Positions 4,798-24,185 of a DNA stretch of 64,000 nucleotides are shown here, piece after piece (position 1 is the first letter of the stretch; every line of letters begins with the position of its first letter). The DNA lies in IMG/VR virus record IMGVR_UViG_2667527770_000005, positions 1 through 64,000 of that record; one strand, written 5' to 3'. A program made the translations under genes and the position numbers. The notes under the pieces are model-generated. The model was not told the origin of the DNA and did not search any database. It saw only the letters and a program-made list of their open reading frames with translations. This stretch comes from a virus. Taxonomy: Duplodnaviria > Heunggongvirae > Uroviricota > Caudoviricetes.

Positions 4798-7785
4798 ATG
4801 AGCTTAAGCGATCAGGTGGTGATGGCCACCAGCATAGAAACGCTGATCGAGCTGCTAAAAAACCTGCCCGATTACGGGCGGGTTTCGTATGTGGTGACAG
4901 CGAAGGGAGACGAGGTAAAAACAGCGTTTGATATCGTCGATGCCTCAGCTCTTTTGGTATCCAATACTCTGGACGGGAAAATTAATCCGGACTATCCCCA
5001 GGAACTTCAGCCGCGCGACCGGACCCGCGCATCCAGCCTTCTTCAGGTCAACCAGATATCCAAGGATTTGCGGCCTGCTCAGCTTACCGATTCCGGTTTA
5101 TCCAGCCATGGCGCGCCGATAATTGGTGAGGACAATGCCGTTGAGTCAGGTAATGGACGGACCATGGGGATCATCAAAGCCTATCAGGACGGCAATGCGG
5201 ATCGGTATCGTGAGTACCTGATTGAACATGCGACCGAATTCGGCATACGACCTGAAAAGGTTGAATCAATGACGGCTCCGGTACTGGTGCGCCGCCGGTT
5301 AACGAAGGTTGACCGTGTTCAGTTTGCCAAGGACTCAAATATTTCTGATCTCCAGGAAATGGCAGCCAGTGAAAAGGCTTTTGTTGATGCCGACAGCATA
5401 ACTCCGGCGATGATGGCGCTGTTTAACCCATCAGAAAGCGGAGATCTGCTTAGCCGCAGTAATGACGCGTTTATTCGCGGATTCATGACGCAAGTTGGTG
5501 CCACACAGGCTGCTGGCCTTGTAACGGAAGATGGGCGACCAACACGACAACTTGTTGACCGTATACAAAACGCGATCTTTGCCAAGGCATATAAGGATGC
5601 GCGCCTGGTAAGAATGGTTGCAGAAGAACCTGATCCGGATATGCGTAATGTTCTGACGGCGCTTAATGCGGCAGCCAATGATTTTGTCCAGATGCAGGCT
5701 TTATCAGGAGAAGCGCACAAGCAGGCTGTGACAACTATCGTTGATGGTATTGAAACAGCGGATAGCCTCGATAAAAAGGCGCTGGCGGCATTGAAAGATG
5801 CGGTAGACCTGGTAAGGCAATCGAAGGAGTCAGGCCAACATATTAACGATGTTATTGCTCAGGGGGATATGTTCAGCGAAACAGCCCCGGAAGTGAAAGC
5901 TCTCGCGTTGTTCATCGTCGCGAATAACCGTAGCGCGAAGCGTATGGCCACCGCCTTTAAATTGATGGCTCAACGTATCAATGATGAGTTACAGCACCAG
6001 GGCCAGGCGCTGGGGGATATGTTTGGCGGTGGTGATGTGTCGTTACAGGATATCCTTCGCCAGGTGTCTCAGGAACTGGAAAACGAAGGCATGCAAGGGA
6101 TATCCGGCGGTCTTTTCGAGTCCGTTTCCGGCGGTAGTTACAACGGCGTTGCTCCATATACCAGTTTGCTATTGCATCGGGCATCCGGCACCAAAGACAT
6201 TATTCATCTGATCAGGCTGCTTTCCCGTACAGATCCCCAGGATGAACAGCTTGTTCAAGTGCTTGCGCATTTTGTTCGAATGCCTGTTGCCGACGTGAAA
6301 AAATGGTGCCGATTATTCGGTATCAGCAATTCGTTACTTCGCGGCTTGTTAAATCACGCATCCTCCCTTGGGCGCGATGGCTTTGACGAGATAGCGCAGG
6401 CGATAAAAAACGGAGATATGCCACCAGCTATTGACTGGTTTTCCATTCGCCCAACCAGGGTGAAAGCATTCCTTAGCGCGGCGCATACGGCATCACCATT
6501 GGCAGAAATGGTTCAGAGGTTGTCGCTCATATTCACAGACCATACCGCGTTGGGTGATCTGACTCTGGACGAGATGAAAGAAGCCTCCATTCAGTGGGCC
6601 GATCAACAAAATGAGGTTAACTCTGACTTCTTGCCAGCATTCAGGAAGGCCGTTAGTAAAGCTGATGATGCCCGTGGAATTCTGAAGGCATTTAAGGCAT
6701 TGCAAAGTCAGGTTAATAAACATGTCGGTGATATCGATGGGGTAACGGCGGAAGGCAGGGATATCCTTAAAGAGCACGGCATAACGCCAGAGTTTATTGA
6801 TGAGATCAGGACTGATATGCAGCGTGAGGTCGTATCGTCACTGCAAATCGTAGCCAGAGCGTTGGCGGATGCTAATCCGAAGAGTGCGGCCATTGTTAAC
6901 CGTGTTATTGGTGATATTGAAGCATCGGAGGGCATGGGGGCGCTGAAACTCTTCCTTTCGCGAGCGTTTAATCCTAACGGCAATATTCTCCCCGGCATTA
7001 TTGGTGAGGCTAAAAAGTATGTCAGCGAAGAAGAACTTGAGCAGCTTGACCAACTACTTAAGCGATTCTCATATAACCCGCAGACACGCTGGCAAATGAA
7101 TCAGCGAAGAATGGGTTCGGTCCACGAGAAAGTGTTATCTGCCATGAACAGTGCGATCGCAAACTCATCCGTATCTGAAGAAAAAGCTCTTGAGTGGGCC
7201 GACTCTTTTATCACGGAAGAAGTGGAAGAAGCCCGCGCTGGACAGAATGGTGGGATAGACCTGCGCAAGGAACTTGCTGATATTTATCGCCTGACCGGCG
7301 GTAAAATTTCGACCTTATCAAAGGTGGTTCACCACCAGGGAAGGGCATATGCAAATCTTAATGGTGTTGTTGCTGTCAATTTGAACGATGAAAATGCAAG
7401 TGCACTGTGGCACGAGCTGGGTCATCATCTTGAGTACAGTAACCCTGGTTTGTTAGAGAAAGCCCGGTCATTCCTGAAGGCCAATGTTGAAGGGGATAAG
7501 CCATCTTTCGTTAATATCGGTGGGCGTGGCAAGCCTGAATGGTGCTTCAGATCTCGATTGAGTAATATTTATATGGCGAAGGTATACCCGCCAGCCTCAG
7601 TAAGTAACACCGGGAAAATTCGGCAGAAATCACCGACTATTTCCAAAACGTCAGCAACGGAAGTATTCTCTATGGCTCTTCAGTTGTATCATGACAAAGA
7701 GGCCGCTGCCGCATCACTGATGAATGGTGACGGATTGCTGGAACTGTTATTAGGTGTGGCAAAGGAGCTAAATAATGCAGATTAA
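4798..7785 (+). CDS. ddrB: DdrB-like large dar operon protein
   Basis: 995-aa ORF following ddrA; assignment by size and synteny. Confidence 0.65.
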   Translation: MSLSDQVVMATSIETLIELLKNLPDYGRVSYVVTAKGDEVKTAFDIVDASALLVSNTLDGKINPDYPQELQPRDRTRASSLLQVNQISKDLRPAQLTDSGLSSHGAPIIGEDNAVESGNGRTMGIIKAYQDGNADRYREYLIEHATEFGIRPEKVESMTAPVLVRRRLTKVDRVQFAKDSNISDLQEMAASEKAFVDADSITPAMMALFNPSESGDLLSRSNDAFIRGFMTQVGATQAAGLVTEDGRPTRQLVDRIQNAIFAKAYKDARLVRMVAEEPDPDMRNVLTALNAAANDFVQMQALSGEAHKQAVTTIVDGIETADSLDKKALAALKDAVDLVRQSKESGQHINDVIAQGDMFSETAPEVKALALFIVANNRSAKRMATAFKLMAQRINDELQHQGQALGDMFGGGDVSLQDILRQVSQELENEGMQGISGGLFESVSGGSYNGVAPYTSLLLHRASGTKDIIHLIRLLSRTDPQDEQLVQVLAHFVRMPVADVKKWCRLFGISNSLLRGLLNHASSLGRDGFDEIAQAIKNGDMPPAIDWFSIRPTRVKAFLSAAHTASPLAEMVQRLSLIFTDHTALGDLTLDEMKEASIQWADQQNEVNSDFLPAFRKAVSKADDARGILKAFKALQSQVNKHVGDIDGVTAEGRDILKEHGITPEFIDEIRTDMQREVVSSLQIVARALADANPKSAAIVNRVIGDIEASEGMGALKLFLSRAFNPNGNILPGIIGEAKKYVSEEELEQLDQLLKRFSYNPQTRWQMNQRRMGSVHEKVLSAMNSAIANSSVSEEKALEWADSFITEEVEEARAGQNGGIDLRKELADIYRLTGGKISTLSKVVHHQGRAYANLNGVVAVNLNDENASALWHELGHHLEYSNPGLLEKARSFLKANVEGDKPSFVNIGGRGKPEWCFRSRLSNIYMAKVYPPASVSNTGKIRQKSPTISKTSATEVFSMALQLYHDKEAAAASLMNGDGLLELLLGVAKELNNAD

Positions 7786-8086
7786 AATCGCAGCGCCATT
7801 AGGCGGAGATGCCATTATCGAATTTGATGATAATGAAGAAGTTTCCGGGCGTTTAAGCATTATCTCCGGTGACATTACCGAGGACATGATCGCTGAAGCC
7901 ATAGCTGGGGCAAATCCCAATAGCTATATGGGATTCGTTAACACCCTTGATGCTCCCGCAAGTGATGTTCTCCGAACGCTGCATCTTTACGCTGGCTGGT
8001 TTGTTGATTGGCCAGCAGTAGATGGTGGCGATGATGACGACGACGATGATGATTTTGGTGATCATGTAGACCAGATCGTATATTAA
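7775..8086 (+). CDS. small acidic protein ending in a poly-Asp tract, last gene of dar operon
   Basis: 103-aa ORF with GGDDDDDDDDFGD C-terminal region; overlaps ddrB stop. Confidence 0.45.
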   Translation: MQIKIAAPLGGDAIIEFDDNEEVSGRLSIISGDITEDMIAEAIAGANPNSYMGFVNTLDAPASDVLRTLHLYAGWFVDWPAVDGGDDDDDDDDFGDHVDQIVY

Positions 8087-8688
8087 CTCCCTGATTGTGC
8101 AAAAATAATCTGTTCTGATATGTTAATTGTGTACTTAAAGTAAACGCGTAGTGGCTTGCTTTAGGTTATGGAAGCAAGCCGTTACCTAATATGTTAGATC
8201 AAAAAAAATTAATTTTTGCGTTTCGCTCACCACATATTGAACACTTTAGTCGATCTTTTAATTCTTCCAGAGTCAATCCTGAAGCTACATATTGTTTAAT
8301 ATCTCTTCTTTATTGCATATTCAGAGGGTAAAGATATACACATACTAAAATGAATTAGCTTAGCTCGTTATTAATCAGGATTCGATGAGACCGCTCCATT
8401 TTAGGGAATAACATTTATAACTAAAACACATCGTCTTTAACTCTCACAATATAGATTCAATTTAATACCCAATCGGCAGTAATTAATTTGATTCTAATTT
8501 TTAAGTAGATTTCAAGTCTACATCCATTAAAGCCCTGTTAATTAACAGGCTATCTATTTTTGACAGTTATTATTTTTGTGATAATTTAATTGTTTGTCTT
8601 TTGTGCTTATTTTTGATCTATTTTGTCAATTTTTATTCTGTGAATTGAGTTTTTTCTAATAGTCCATTGGGTTTTCAAGGCTATTATT

Positions 8689-8704
8689 TGTGATTTTGAT
8701 CACA
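8689..8704. promoter_or_regulatory. CRP-like binding site upstream of porin gene
   Basis: TGTGATTTTGATCACA matches TGTGA-N6-TCACA exactly; about 120 bp upstream of the porin ATG in a very AT-rich region. Confidence 0.4.
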
Positions 8705-8816
8705 AAAATACCTTGATTTTTATTTGCAAAACTTGAAACACGAATCCAAAAAAGATAAACATTTGTCCGCAGTGACTTCTTTTCTACTGAAAAGTTCAAT
8801 CTAAAGGGCAAAAAAA

Positions 8817-9929
8817 ATGAAAAAAATCACAGTGGCACTCTCTGCGGTTGCAGCATCTGTCCTGATGGCAATGTCTGCGCAAGCAGCTGAAATCTACAAC
8901 AAAGACGGTAATAAACTGGATCTGTACGGCAAAGTTAACGCAGAACATTACTTCTCTTCTTCAGCTAGTGATGACGGAGATAAGACTTATGCTCGTCTGG
9001 GATTCAAAGGTGAAACTCAGATTAATGACCAGTTAACCGGTTTTGGTCAGTGGGAGTACGAATTTAAAGGTAACCGTACTGAATCTGAGGGCTCTGATAA
9101 AGATAAAACTCGTCTTGCATTTGCTGGCCTCCGTTTTGCTGATTATGGTTCAATCGACTATGGTCGCAACTATGGTGTAGCTTATGATATTGGCGCTTGG
9201 ACTGACGTGCTGCCTGAGTTTGGTGGAGATACCTGGACTCAGACCGATGTATTTATGACCCAGCGTGCTACTGGCGTAGCCACCTACCGTAACAATGATT
9301 TCTTCGGCCTGGTTGATGGTCTGAACTTTGCTTTGCAGTATCAAGGTAAAAATGATAGTGCTGCAAAAGTGAACAACTGGAAAGGCCGTGACGTAGTTGA
9401 ATCTAATGGTGATGGCTTTGGTCTGTCTGCTACTTACGATTATGAAGGATTTGGCGTTGGTGCAACCTATGCAAAATCTGATCGTACTGATGGGCAGGTA
9501 TCCTATGCTAAAAAGGATCCTCTGAATGCTTCTGGTAAAACTGCTGAAGTATGGGCTACTGGCCTGAAATATGACGCAAATAACATTTACCTGGCTGCAA
9601 CTTATTCTGAAACTCAGAATATGACTGTCTTCGGTGATGACTTTATCGCGAACAAGGCGAAAAACTTTGAAGCTGTTGCTCAATACCAGTTTGATTTCGG
9701 CCTGCGTCCGTCCATCGCTTATCTGCACTCTCGCGGTGAAAATATTGGTGCGTTCGGCAGCCAGGATCTGGTTGAATACATCGACTTGGGTGCGACTTAT
9801 TACTTCAACAAAAATATGTCCGCTTTCGTTGACTACAAGATCAACCTGATTGATGAAAGTGAATTTACCAAAAGATCTGAGGTTGCAACCGACAACATCG
9901 TTGCTGTTGGTATGACCTACCAATTCTAA
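8817..9929 (+). CDS. general diffusion porin (OmpC/OmpF/PhoE family), phage-borne
   Basis: 370-aa ORF; signal peptide [23 protein letters not shown] then [17 protein letters not shown], beta-barrel repeats, C-terminal ...VGMTYQF terminal Phe typical of OMPs. Confidence 0.9.
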
Positions 9930-10084
9930 TTTTGGTAGGTAAGAATATGCGGGAAGGGAGTGATGTCACTGCCCGCATATAGGTGGCACCCTCATGCCAC
10001 CTTTGAAGAGGCAATAAAATTGCCTCTTCTCAATTTAACTTCATGTTATTTATTACCTTTTTATTAATTTGAAACTCTATTGTT

Positions 10085-10111
10085 GGGGCGCTTTGTTGCG
10101 CCCATTTTTTT
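10085..10111 (+). terminator. rho-independent terminator after porin gene
   Basis: GGGGCGC-TTTGTT-GCGCCC hairpin followed by ATTTTTTT. Confidence 0.65.
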
Positions 10112-10162
10112 ACACCAATTAGGTAAAGTTATTTTTAAGTAATCGAGCAACTTTCAGCCCTC

Positions 10163-10651
10163 TCAAAATGGAATATCGTCTTCAAAGTCCATTGGAGGTT
10201 CGCTATTGGCGTTGCTCTGAGGTTTACTGCCACCGCTGTATTGCTGGTGGTTTTGAGGTTGGTTTGACTGCCCCCAGCCATTTGAGAATTGTGAATCGTC
10301 GCGGCGAGCGCCGATCATTTGCATGGTGCCGCCCTGGCTGACGATAATTTCCGTCGTGTAACGTTCTACACCGGCGTCATCTGTCCACTTACGGGTTTTA
10401 AGTTTCCCTTCGATGTAGACCTGAGAACCTTTTCGTAAATACTCACTCGCAATTTCAGCAAGTTTTCCGAACAAAACGACTTTATGCCATTCTGTTTGCT
10501 CTTTCTGTTGGCCCGTTTGCTTGTCGCGCCATGATTCATTCGTTGCGATGCTGAGTCTTCCGACCGCTCCGCCATTTGGTATATACCTGATCTCCGGGTC
10601 TTGCCCCAGGGTACCAATCAGGATGACTTTGTTTACACCGCGTTGTGCCAC
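10163..10651 (-). CDS. ssb: single-stranded DNA-binding protein
   Basis: 162-aa ORF; OB-fold N-terminus ([20 protein letters not shown]), Gly/Gln-rich linker and acidic C-terminal tail DFEDDIPF. Confidence 0.95.
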
Positions 10652-10670
10652 TTATCTTACCTAATAAAAT

Positions 10671-10687
10671 AAATTAATTAGAGCAAT
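10671..10687. promoter_or_regulatory. C1 repressor operator (16/17 to ATTGCTCTAATAAATTT, reverse orientation)
   Basis: AAATTAATTAGAGCAAT in the divergent ssb/lyz intergenic region. Confidence 0.65.
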
Positions 10688-10820
10688 AATGTATATCTTT
10701 GAAACGTAGCTAACAAGTGATTTGCATTATCCTGTGCCTTCTAAAGGGATCGAGTCAGTCGGTATTGGCTGTGAATGGGTGTTTGTCCTGGAGCGTAAAA
10801 AATTCGCTTATGAGGTCTTT

Positions 10821-21994: not shown

Positions 21995-23299
21995 CTATAT
22001 AAACTTAGATATAATATCGTGAATCTGTTGTAGCGGGATTTCTTCCATCTTACTCTTAATAAGAGAGCGGTTAGATGCTGTCAGTGAAGGCCATTTTGTT
22101 TTCCAGGCTAGATATGCTCGCCATGAGTAGCCTGTTTCGTAAGGTTTATTCATATAAGTCATTGAGTGTTCAACCGCATGTATGTATTTTTTCTCAAAGT
22201 TGGTTCCTTTTACTTCAAATAAACTACCGAAATAAATAAGCCATTTTGCCAGGTGTTCATACTGCTCCCATGCGCCAGACTCTTTAGTAAGATCTATTTT
22301 TTTATCTATTATATCACAAAAAACATTTAATACCTTTTCATCATTCCAGCTATATCCAGATGATGAAATGGAGGAAATGATATGATAAAAAGAATCCTCT
22401 AACTTCAAGAACTCTATTTTATACTCTCTTCCGTTTTTTATTACCGATTTGATTGAGTGCCTCAATTTGTCTTTTATTTTTTTTGCTTCTGGAATTTTCT
22501 TGTTAAGTTTTCTAAAGAAATCAGACACCTCTGTTTTATCTATAACCCTAATCCCAAAGCAGGAAAAATAGTAATCTTTAATAGGTTGCAATAGTTTTCC
22601 TCGGGAAATAAGGAAAATATTGGAGGACATTACGTTGTCCCGTGAAAATACCTTATATTCATTTATAATCGCCTTGAGGTTCGCGTCACTTAGAGAATAG
22701 CCAAGAATAACAATAGTGTTTTCATGTAGAACTGTGCTTAGTTTATTTGAAAAGTAAGAATTACCATTTATAAATCTGAAATAATCCTCGCTAGTAACAA
22801 CCATATCTGATGGGGAGTCTATAGAGCCGTGAACATGGTAGACTTTAACCTCACAATTATATTTTGGAATTGGCAGGCCGGGGGTGATTGTACACGTTCG
22901 ATTCTCTCCAGCCAGTTTTTCTGCTAACTTGTCATAATTTGTCGTAATTACTTTAAATGTGTTTTCTTTGAAAAAGTCTTGAATATATTCAATTGATGGA
23001 TCAAGTTCGATTGAGGCTATGATTTTCTCAATCTCCTGGTAAATATTTTTCCCCGAAAGTATAAATTTTAGTGCAATAACCTGAGCAGCCTCTTCAAGGC
23101 TAAGGTCTTTTGCTTTTCCATCAGGAAATAATTCCTCTTTGAGTGAGTCACCATCCTTCAATAAACCGCACAGTTGCTCCAATAAAGATTGCCAACTTGG
23201 GGCTTTATCATCAGAAACAGCCTTTGAAAATCCAGTGCCTGTAAGAAAGCACAGCCTATGTGTAGCTGCTGCATAGGCAATTTCTATATACTCGCTCAT
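21995..23299 (-). CDS. SIR2-like (sirtuin-fold NADase) protein with uncharacterised C-terminal domain; candidate defence gene
   Basis: 434-aa ORF; GTGFS (res 21-25), TTNYD (119-123), YHVHGS (154-159) match SIR2-family signatures; about 35% GC versus a more GC-rich backbone; occupies the mat-lxc slot. Confidence 0.75.
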   Translation of the reverse strand: MSEYIEIAYAAATHRLCFLTGTGFSKAVSDDKAPSWQSLLEQLCGLLKDGDSLKEELFPDGKAKDLSLEEAAQVIALKFILSGKNIYQEIEKIIASIELDPSIEYIQDFFKENTFKVITTNYDKLAEKLAGENRTCTITPGLPIPKYNCEVKVYHVHGSIDSPSDMVVTSEDYFRFINGNSYFSNKLSTVLHENTIVILGYSLSDANLKAIINEYKVFSRDNVMSSNIFLISRGKLLQPIKDYYFSCFGIRVIDKTEVSDFFRKLNKKIPEAKKIKDKLRHSIKSVIKNGREYKIEFLKLEDSFYHIISSISSSGYSWNDEKVLNVFCDIIDKKIDLTKESGAWEQYEHLAKWLIYFGSLFEVKGTNFEKKYIHAVEHSMTYMNKPYETGYSWRAYLAWKTKWPSLTASNRSLIKSKMEEIPLQQIHDIISKFI

Positions 23300-23355: not shown

Positions 23356-23997
23356 TTATAGATAATTTCCTTTTCCTGTTAATACTCCCTTAGGCACCTG
23401 TTTTTGTGCCAGCGTTTGGGTTCCGCGAATTATGTTAATCAGAGGGCTTAGTAACGATGGTTCCTGGCGTGCCTCAACTTCTCCAGCCATTGCCCTGATG
23501 TAGTCTGCGCTGGCAACGTTGTTGTATTCCGTCGCAAAGCAACATAGTAACGTCAGAACATGCTCTGTCGTTATTTCGCTCCAGTTGATGTTGAAAAATT
23601 CATCGCCTTTTTTATCGTGTTCGGAATCGAAGATGCTTTGGTGGAGGATGTATTTGCCGGATTCCTTGCGCGGTAACTTGATCGCTTTCTGGCGTTCCAG
23701 CTCCTTGTAAATCTGCATTGCTTCAATCAGTACCGGCCTGCCGTTCATGAAGGGATCGCGCAACCTTACACGCTGGCCAACTCGACCAGTAATAAAGCTG
23801 TTTTCCTCTTCCACCAGCACGATAAAACCCTTTTCCTCTTTTTCTCGCAATTCGCGCAGCAGCTGGAGTTCCATGTCGCGGCGGCGTTCAGGGTAGCTGG
23901 TCCGCTCAGCCATTATCAGCTCGTTGTTGATCCATGCAGCAGTCATTGACGCCGGTTTGCCGACGCTCATCGAAACAACGCATATTTTCTTATCCAT
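23356..23997 (-). CDS. mat: Mat-like particle maturation protein
   Basis: ORF 23356..24024 in track begins with GTG; first ATG with AGGGG RBS is at 23997; position between ref and the res-mod slot as in P1. Confidence 0.55.
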   Translation of the reverse strand: MDKKICVVSMSVGKPASMTAAWINNELIMAERTSYPERRRDMELQLLRELREKEEKGFIVLVEEENSFITGRVGQRVRLRDPFMNGRPVLIEAMQIYKELERQKAIKLPRKESGKYILHQSIFDSEHDKKGDEFFNINWSEITTEHVLTLLCCFATEYNNVASADYIRAMAGEVEARQEPSLLSPLINIIRGTQTLAQKQVPKGVLTGKGNYL

Positions 23998-24185
23998 AGC
24001 GCCCCTACAAAAAAGAAAAGCCACCAGCGGCGGCTTAGCAATACAACTGAAGGTAGCGCCCGGTACTCAGACTGTGCCGTCCATGGAATATTTGAAAAGG
24101 GATCCATCCGTACCGGGCGTGTGATGATTCTGACTCAAGTCACTTGTCAGTTGTCAATCATTTAAGATTAAAAATAATATATTTA

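Follow-up and report, generated by a model that had tools for sequence, protein, structure and literature searches.

A phage-type porin gene with an IpeX-family 3' element in a P1/P7-like phage-plasmid: a candidate porin-conversion cassette

Phage-borne porins have been described in lambdoid phages, where Lc of phage PA-2 and NmpC of the cryptic Escherichia coli K-12 prophage DLP12 are encoded between Q and the lysis genes, and where a structured element, the locus of the small RNA (sRNA) IpeX, lies directly after the porin stop codon. The original IpeX study, on DLP12/PA-2, is reportedly that of Castillo-Keller and colleagues in 2006. Another relevant sRNA is MicF, which pairs with the Shine-Dalgarno/start region of ompF and is encoded by an independent gene divergent from ompC. 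IpeX is a 167-nt sRNA that, according to the literature, is transcribed within the phage porin mRNA from the porin promoter and then processed (PMC12197685), and it was reported to repress the translation of ompC and ompF (PMC5069750; PMC7177473). In this study, a porin gene and the RNA element predicted to follow it were analysed in the 64,000-nt sequence of a Caudoviricetes virus (IMG/VR record IMGVR_UViG_2667527770_000005, positions 1 to 64,000; hereafter the window).

A preliminary description of this DNA had placed a porin moron at 8087-10111 and compared it with Lc of PA-2. The comparison proved to be one of homology and not just of analogy, as the two porins are 80.8% identical in amino acids and their loci share the signal peptide, a CRP site, and the 3' element. 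The porin gene is not new; it has been deposited and annotated in the P1-like phages P7 (as nmpC) and JL22 (as ompD), and lambdoid phages are already known to have the Lc/NmpC-IpeX module. What appears to be new, judged by the P7 and JL22 records and the searchable literature, is that the P1/P7-type cassette has an IpeX-family element, which is diverged and has a MicF-like, predicted ompF-biased seed. Neither the existing annotation nor the 3' sRNA element had been included in the preliminary description.

The IpeX-family element and its predicted targets

The 182 nt after the porin stop codon (Table 1) align with the regions downstream of lc in PA-2 and nmpC in DLP12, i.e., the IpeX locus. 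A covariance model (R1), for which only lambdoid and E. albertii sequences were used (12 in all) and whose E values are roughly calibrated, had its sole match in the window at 9930-10084 (67.4 bits, E = 9e-14), and it also matched P7 and three chromosomal cassettes. With this model, and in agreement with blastn, no match was found in the OmpD-like loci of Salmonella, Enterobacter, Citrobacter, Huaxiibacter, and Klebsiella, and the model found none in the ompC and ompF loci of K-12. The predicted fold (minimum free energy -66.9 kcal/mol, z = -6.2) comprises three stem-loops, an unpaired linker, and a terminator. The stems are retained despite divergence in sequence: in the model-guided alignment of the two clades 96.8% of the cells were paired, and compensatory double changes were found in 14 of the 39 pairs, compared with 1-4 in slid controls and with no case as good among 500 shuffles. 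The model-guided alignment was used instead of the raw MAFFT alignment of the two clades, with which RNAalifold missed SL1, SL3, and the terminator owing to register shifts. The linker holds a run of columns invariant across both clades and is the most sequence-conserved stretch, whereas the stems covary, as would be expected if the linker were a base-pairing seed. By homology and predicted structure, the region is an IpeX-family homologue.

The element resembles IpeX in its position 3' of a phage porin stop codon, in its three stem-loops, linker and terminator, and in its complementarity to the ompC and ompF starts; it differs in being only about 70-75% identical in sequence, with stems rebuilt by compensatory changes. 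Compared with the lambdoid element, its linker is 19-20 nt longer and its best-matching target is another one. The preliminary description had credited the gene with its own terminator; the hairpin and its T run are present, yet they are not a bare terminator but the last part of the conserved, structured 182-nt region. Nothing is annotated between the porin stop and ssb in the P7 and JL22 records, and the searchable literature yielded no paper that links IpeX to P1/P7-like elements and nothing specific on P7 nmpC or a P1-like porin. IpeX is not represented by a model in Rfam, where the K-12 ipeX region gives no match. Two other sRNAs were considered and rejected. GcvB (RF00022) aligned at full length to 9925-10111 at a sub-threshold score (30.5 bits, gathering threshold 42; E = 3.5e-4 in a 3.1-kb search); it was rejected in view of the homology of this stretch to the sequence 3' of lc/nmpC and because GcvB reached the gathering threshold nowhere in the window, and the resemblance is judged a chance likeness of architecture. 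The other, svsR, is a prophage sRNA limiting phage adsorption (PMC12247714), which sits at the 3' end of cI and is unrelated to porins.

The possible targets were assessed with ompC, ompF, and micF sequences of MG1655, and duplexes were computed between the linker and windows of the start regions. The putative seed, AACTTCATGTTATTTATTACC, contains a 12-mer, TTATTTATTACC, at 10046-10057 that is identical to a stretch of MicF (UUAUUUAUUACC) and perfectly complementary to ompF from -11 to +1; a perfect 12-nt match to ompF was attained in 3 of 1000 shuffles. A separate 11-mer of the 3' element is perfectly complementary to ompC from -6 to +5. The predicted duplex of the linker was strongest with the ompF start region (-24.5 kcal/mol, with 1 of 1000 shuffles as good), followed by that of ompC (-20.8 kcal/mol; 16 of 1000), and the start region of the cassette's own porin gave -9.7 kcal/mol, a value equalled or bettered by 581 of 1000 shuffles. 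The order is reversed for the K-12 IpeX linker, which pairs best with ompC (-26.7 kcal/mol; none of 1000) and less well with ompF (-18.6 kcal/mol; 12 of 1000). By the same method the MicF-ompF duplex reached -27.4 kcal/mol; MicF and the element have no homology past the 12-mer, and MicF does not form the 3' part of a porin mRNA. It is thus conceivable, although we would put it at slightly less than an even chance, that the P1/P7-type element is a diverged IpeX variant whose seed was retargeted, with the MicF-identical 12-mer and a best match in ompF and not ompC. In the predicted fold, GGUAAG at 9937..9942, just past the stop codon, pairs with UUACCU at 10053..10058 of the seed and closes a multibranch loop.

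Table 1. Position of the porin cassette, its parts, and the adjoining segments in the window
Feature	Position	Strand	Basis or remark
isaB' remnant	8198..8308	-	translation; P1 alignment, homology ends at ~8307
AT-rich non-coding spacer	8308..8629		GC 0.26-0.33; restricted to porin-carrying P1/P7-like elements
Promoter and 5' untranslated region of the porin cassette	8630..8816	+	alignment with chromosomal copies and PA-2 lc
CRP-like site TGTGATTTTGATCACA	8689..8704		both consensus half-sites, 6-bp spacer; perfect palindrome
Porin gene, NmpC/Lc/OmpD type, 370 aa, ATG start	8817..9929	+	open reading frame, profile, and structure matches
IpeX-family 3' element, 182 nt directly after the stop codon (9927-9929)	9930..10111	+	covariance model, covariation, fold
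SL1	9945-9980	+	part of the IpeX-family 3' element
SL2	9981-10002	+	part of the IpeX-family 3' element
SL3	10005-10029	+	part of the IpeX-family 3' element
Unpaired linker	10030-10085	+	part of the IpeX-family 3' element
Putative seed	10037..10057	+	complementarity to K-12 ompF and ompC; MicF comparison
Terminator hairpin GGGCGC-N6-GCGCCC, T7 run to 10111	10086-10103	+	part of the IpeX-family 3' element
Right tail of the island	10112..10162		runs to the ssb stop codon

The porin and its control region

The porin matches the whole Pfam profile Porin_1 (PF00267; positions 1-337 of 337, E = 3.9e-148, 493.8 bits with a cutoff of 23.7) and the NCBIfam subfamily 'porin OmpC' (NF007841; 530 bits, cutoff 484). 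Over residues 24-370 it matches the mature chains of solved OmpC, OmpK36, PhoE, and OmpF structures from one end to the other (E down to 8e-136), and therefore the first 23 residues are predicted to be a signal peptide cleaved after AQA, between SAQA and AEIYNKDG. This peptide is encoded at 8817-8885, and the same 69-nt signal peptide is annotated in the P7 record. A complete porin of the OmpC/OmpF family with a signal peptide, as put forward in the preliminary description, is therefore confirmed. In the alignment with K-12 OmpC and OmpF the porin keeps the L3 motif LPEFGGD (PEFGGD), the K/R pore columns, and the C-terminal YQF; the roles of the pore residues are known from OmpF. The mature protein would form a 16-stranded beta-barrel trimer in the outer membrane.

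The amino acid sequence is identical to the porins of JL22 and phi456 (100% each), where the gene of phi456 is unannotated, and it is 96.2% identical to NmpC of P7, from which it differs at 15 residue positions and by one indel. Among the chromosomal cassettes, the identity is 96.2% in strain SM107, 91.1% in strain no107, and 82.4% in a distant copy. It falls to 80.8% for PA-2 Lc, 76.8% for S. arizonae OmpD, 74.4% for an Enterobacter OmpD-like porin, 63.2% for K-12 OmpC, and 60.0% for K-12 OmpF. In the phage records, 35 lambdoid phages carry porins that are 80-82% identical, and no porin closer than 82% was found among one-genome-per-species representatives. By these comparisons it is a member of the phage Lc/NmpC/OmpD clade, being closer to Lc/NmpC than to OmpC or OmpF. 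OmpD of Salmonella and the OmpD-like porins of Enterobacter and Citrobacter fall in the same subclade (72-77% identity); they differ in being chromosomal, in having another signal peptide (MKLKLVAV...) than the one common to Lc and the window porin, and in having no IpeX-like 3' element by covariance model or blastn. The differences from Lc are clustered in a few blocks, including an indel. In two of them a 19-residue stretch of the window porin faces KNDRSDFDNYTEG in Lc, and the block that follows differs as well; the blocks are taken to be surface loops, which would be L4/L5 for these two.

Upstream of the gene, the region 8630..8816 is kept in the chromosomal copies flanked by insertion sequences (IS) and, more distantly, in PA-2 lc. 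The last base of the CRP-like site, which was recognised by the established CRP consensus, lies 112 nt upstream of the ATG. Its counterpart in the alignment with PA-2 lc is an annotated CRP site (J02580, 1363-1383), with its end 111 nt ahead of the lc ATG. A candidate -35 (TTGAAA, 8733-8738) and a candidate -10 (8754-8761) follow, both of them weak, and the 5' untranslated region has a conserved block of GCAGTGAC ... AAAGTTCAA ... AAAGGG. No operator of the phage repressor C1 was found in 8087-10162, the nearest being Op(ssb) at 10671-10687. The gene may be a moron: it has its own terminator, its island holds no C1 operator, and P1 as well as about 80% of the P1-like elements lack it. As to a promoter of its own, there are the CRP-type site and the weak hexamers, and nothing that passes the consensus scan. 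Within the coding sequence, CAGTGGC at 8830..8836 (positions +14..+20 in the porin mRNA) is the complement of a 5'-terminal stretch of RybB, an sRNA reported to target nmpC and ompD (PMC3333887). The RybB duplex with the porin mRNA was equalled or bettered by 63 of 1000 shuffles (20 of 1000 for PA-2 lc), and regulation by RybB was not adopted; a 7-nt seed match weakly better than shuffles is a mere lead.

Carrier, replacement locus and distribution

The first 25 kb of the window are 98% identical to JL22 (ON018986), phi456 (OR339795), and P7 (AF503408/NC_050152), all of the genus Punavirus, i.e., P1-like, and for the DNA of 7700-10700 the identity is 99.6% to the Escherichia phages JL22 and phi456 and 95.8% to P7. 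The C1 operator consensus has 15 matches in the window, with 0.5 expected. On this evidence the carrier is a P1/P7-like phage-plasmid. The porin genes of P7, JL22, and phi456 lie at the same locus, between hxr/odaA and ssb, with the same orientation and flanks. In the window, the upstream neighbours are an open reading frame (ORF) of 995 aa similar to ddrB (PF18763) and then hxr, and downstream the convergent ssb on the minus strand (PF00436) is followed by lyz.

Alignment with P1 places the breakpoints at 8307/8308 on the left and at 10162/10163, the ssb stop codon, on the right. In P1 this slot holds isaB-IS1-isaA, and in other P1-like plasmids isaB-isaA without IS1; in the window it holds an isaB remnant, the spacer, and the porin cassette (8308..10162). 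The location between a dar-type operon and ssb, in the slot occupied by IS1 in P1, agrees with the preliminary description, and so does the AT-rich DNA ahead of the gene, where about 730 bp with 26-33% GC precede the porin ORF (GC 0.26-0.33 across 8100-8800, compared with about 0.47-0.53 in the flanks). The extent of the island needs correction: the porin island is real, but 8087..8307 is backbone shared with P1 that contains the 3' remnant of isaB, and only 8308..10162 diverges from P1. The remnant comprises the last ~36 codons of P1 isaB (RRDIKQYVASGLTLEELKDRLKCSICGERNAKINFF, then the stop), with a stop codon before them, and by this comparison is the mark of the left breakpoint of a replacement. 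From the remnant and the P1-aligned breakpoints it follows that the porin island took the place of the 5' part of isaB and of everything from there up to and including isaA. Between hxr and the remnant, still in DNA shared with P1, lies the inverted repeat GTAGTGGCTTGCTT / AAGCAAGCCGTTAC (8148..8185), which is probably the terminator at which hxr and isaB converge; the P1 record AJ000741 has a feature of the type 'terminator'.

The spacer contains a weak hairpin, CCTGTTAATTAACAGG, at 8534-8549 (z = -2.5). A distant blastn search with it matched 95 E. coli genomes, with 94 of the 96 matching places plasmid-borne, and no annotated feature there. Compared with P7 and most other porin-carrying P1-like plasmids, the window has an 11-bp deletion in the spacer at ~8606/8607 (TGCTTAT joined to TTTTGATC in the window, TGCTTATTGTTGATTGTGTTTTGTTC in P7), which explains the greater part of the 0.5% by which it departs from the best plasmid matches.

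The P1-like ddrB-hxr segment was found in 484 of 5426 complete E. coli genomes (~9%), and the island in 91-95 genomes, which is about 20% of the 484; it has no counterpart in P1 and about 80% of the P1-like elements. In PLSDB, 131 plasmids match, mostly non-mobilizable, and 99 of them do so over at least 80% of the island; the hosts of the 131 are Escherichia (125), Klebsiella (3), Salmonella (2), and Serratia (1, with a 45-nt match). A core of 1.5 kb, from ~8630/8687 to ~10153, recurs in a few E. coli chromosomes at 94% nucleotide identity (88% in one), the homology beginning there at 8630-8687 and ending at ~10153. These copies adjoin elements of the IS3, IS66, and IS5 families, and a more distant copy (~80% nucleotide identity) lies in another IS-rich island. 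In the chromosomes of E. coli SM107, no107, and 2017.11.01CC, the porin and IpeX-like cassette is present without the P1-specific spacer, in islands that have elements of the IS3, IS66, IS5, and IS1 families, or what is left of them, at their borders. The occurrence of the cassette both in P1-like elements and in IS-bounded chromosomal islands indicates that the 1.5-kb unit moves from one replicon to another in one piece, although neither end showed a signature of recombination.

Two further regions of the window are mentioned for completeness. A second AT-rich kilobase (GC 0.34), between a darB-like ORF of 2255 aa and ref, contains a 434-aa ORF (21995..23299, minus strand) in which a SIR2-like domain was recognised (Pfam SIR2_2, E = 1.6e-23) and which has PADLOC matches of the PDC-S25/ThsA-like type, next to another ORF at 23356..24024 (minus strand). 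Since P1 has its res/mod genes at this place, it looks like a defence-gene hotspot with a different candidate defence gene. ARAGORN called four tRNA genes, i.e., Met/CAU at 54322, Thr at 56202, Tyr at 56282 (56282..56368, minus strand), and Asn at 56374, of which the Tyr call scored just 35 bits with the Rfam tRNA model. Because P1 is described with three tRNAs, the gene called for Tyr may be supernumerary or degenerate.

Possible function, competing explanations and significance

Based on these comparisons, the reading that we favour with moderate confidence is that of a porin-conversion cassette in two parts, of a 'replace and silence' kind, which a P1/P7-like phage-plasmid carries as independent cargo. 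In a lysogen, transcription of the cassette would start at a weak promoter of its own, with the help of CRP and regardless of C1 repression, and the mRNA would yield a porin whose trimer is inserted in the outer membrane. The 3' element, either within the mRNA or after processing, would pair through its linker with the translation-initiation regions of ompF and ompC and lower their synthesis, and the mRNA of the cassette would escape repression through the lack of complementarity in its own start region. The net effect would be the swap of host OmpF/OmpC for the phage porin, which would alter the surface receptors for porin-dependent phages and colicins as well as permeability. P1 itself adsorbs to lipopolysaccharide, and therefore the benefit would lie in excluding other phages and in host fitness, not in self-exclusion. 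Remodelling of the outer membrane and exclusion by the porin had been suggested in the preliminary description; it is still inferred, and the IpeX-family element strengthens it.

Several points weigh against the conversion cassette. The covariation comes essentially from two deep clades with minor variants, and hence from few independent events. The duplex statistics refer to mononucleotide shuffles and three target regions and are not transcriptome-wide, and the complementarity to ompC is modest. As part of the seed is paired in the fold, it may be partly sequestered in the full-length transcript; speculatively, sequestration in the unprocessed mRNA would fit the reported need for IpeX processing. 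A scan of the + strand upstream of the porin with the sigma-70 consensus gave no passing site, so that the promoter would be weak and, we infer, activator-dependent. AT-rich foreign DNA is often silenced by H-NS, and the cassette could therefore be poorly expressed. Finally, according to a review, the action of IpeX does not rely solely on complementarity to ompC mRNA (PMC12197685).

A porin-only moron is the most serious alternative, and we regard it as rather unlikely. The gene would then provide an extra general porin that serves the uptake of nutrients, a change of antigens, or the tolerance of heat and stress, and the 3' region would act in cis only, as a terminator and mRNA stabiliser. 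The porin is indeed complete and conserved, the 3' region has a strong terminator, stable 3' hairpins can protect mRNAs, and the ompC complementarity is only moderately better than in shuffles; moreover, over-expression of NmpC was linked to heat resistance (PMC12890032, citing Ruan 2011). However, a conserved unpaired linker between covarying stems is the pattern of a seed and not that of a stabiliser, and the perfect 12-nt match to the ompF start, shared with MicF, is seldom attained by shuffling. The lambdoid homologue is reported to repress ompC and ompF in trans (PMC5069750; PMC7177473).

The possible silence of the locus has to be considered as well, i.e., that a horizontally acquired AT-rich island is transcriptionally repressed in the lysogen, for instance by H-NS, and hitch-hikes without a phenotype. 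The low GC content upstream, the failure to find a consensus promoter, the presence of the island in only about one fifth of P1-like elements, and the status of K-12 nmpC as a classic quiescent porin gene (PMC3333887) would all fit this explanation, which we nevertheless hold to be improbable. The ORF is intact in nearly all copies, with the porin 91-100% identical across P1-like and chromosomal contexts; the differences from Lc are concentrated in the few blocks taken as surface loops; the RNA stems are maintained by compensatory changes; the CRP site is a perfect consensus in a conserved position; and lambdoid nmpC copies were expressed at 37 C in the uropathogenic E. coli CFT073 (PMC12890032). 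That host chromosomal porin DNA was joined to the phage by misassembly, a concern raised with the preliminary description, is scarcely credible, even though related cassettes with 94% nucleotide identity exist in E. coli chromosomes beside IS elements. The same left and right junctions occur in the independently sequenced P7, JL22, and phi456, the last sequenced from purified particles (PMC10967188), in about 99 complete plasmids of PLSDB, and in the 91-95 complete E. coli genomes, and the 320-bp spacer was found solely in the P1-like context. In the phi456 study, lysogen-dependent phenotypes (acid and oxidative stress, colonisation) were described for a phage with an identical cassette, and the porin was never mentioned.

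The lambdoid Lc/NmpC-IpeX module thus appears to travel also on P1-like phage-plasmids, and certain E. coli chromosomes have it as a cassette between IS elements. P1-like phage-plasmids are recognised vehicles of resistance genes (PMC9600943), and the major porins govern the entry of beta-lactams and act as receptors for phages and colicins. If the conversion cassette works as proposed, about one fifth of the P1-like phage-plasmids, many of them with resistance genes, would reprogramme the porins of their hosts by silencing OmpF/OmpC and installing the phage porin, and susceptibility to porin-dependent phages and colicins and permeability to beta-lactams would be affected. A functional cassette would tie together lysogenic conversion, phage exclusion, and antibiotic permeability.

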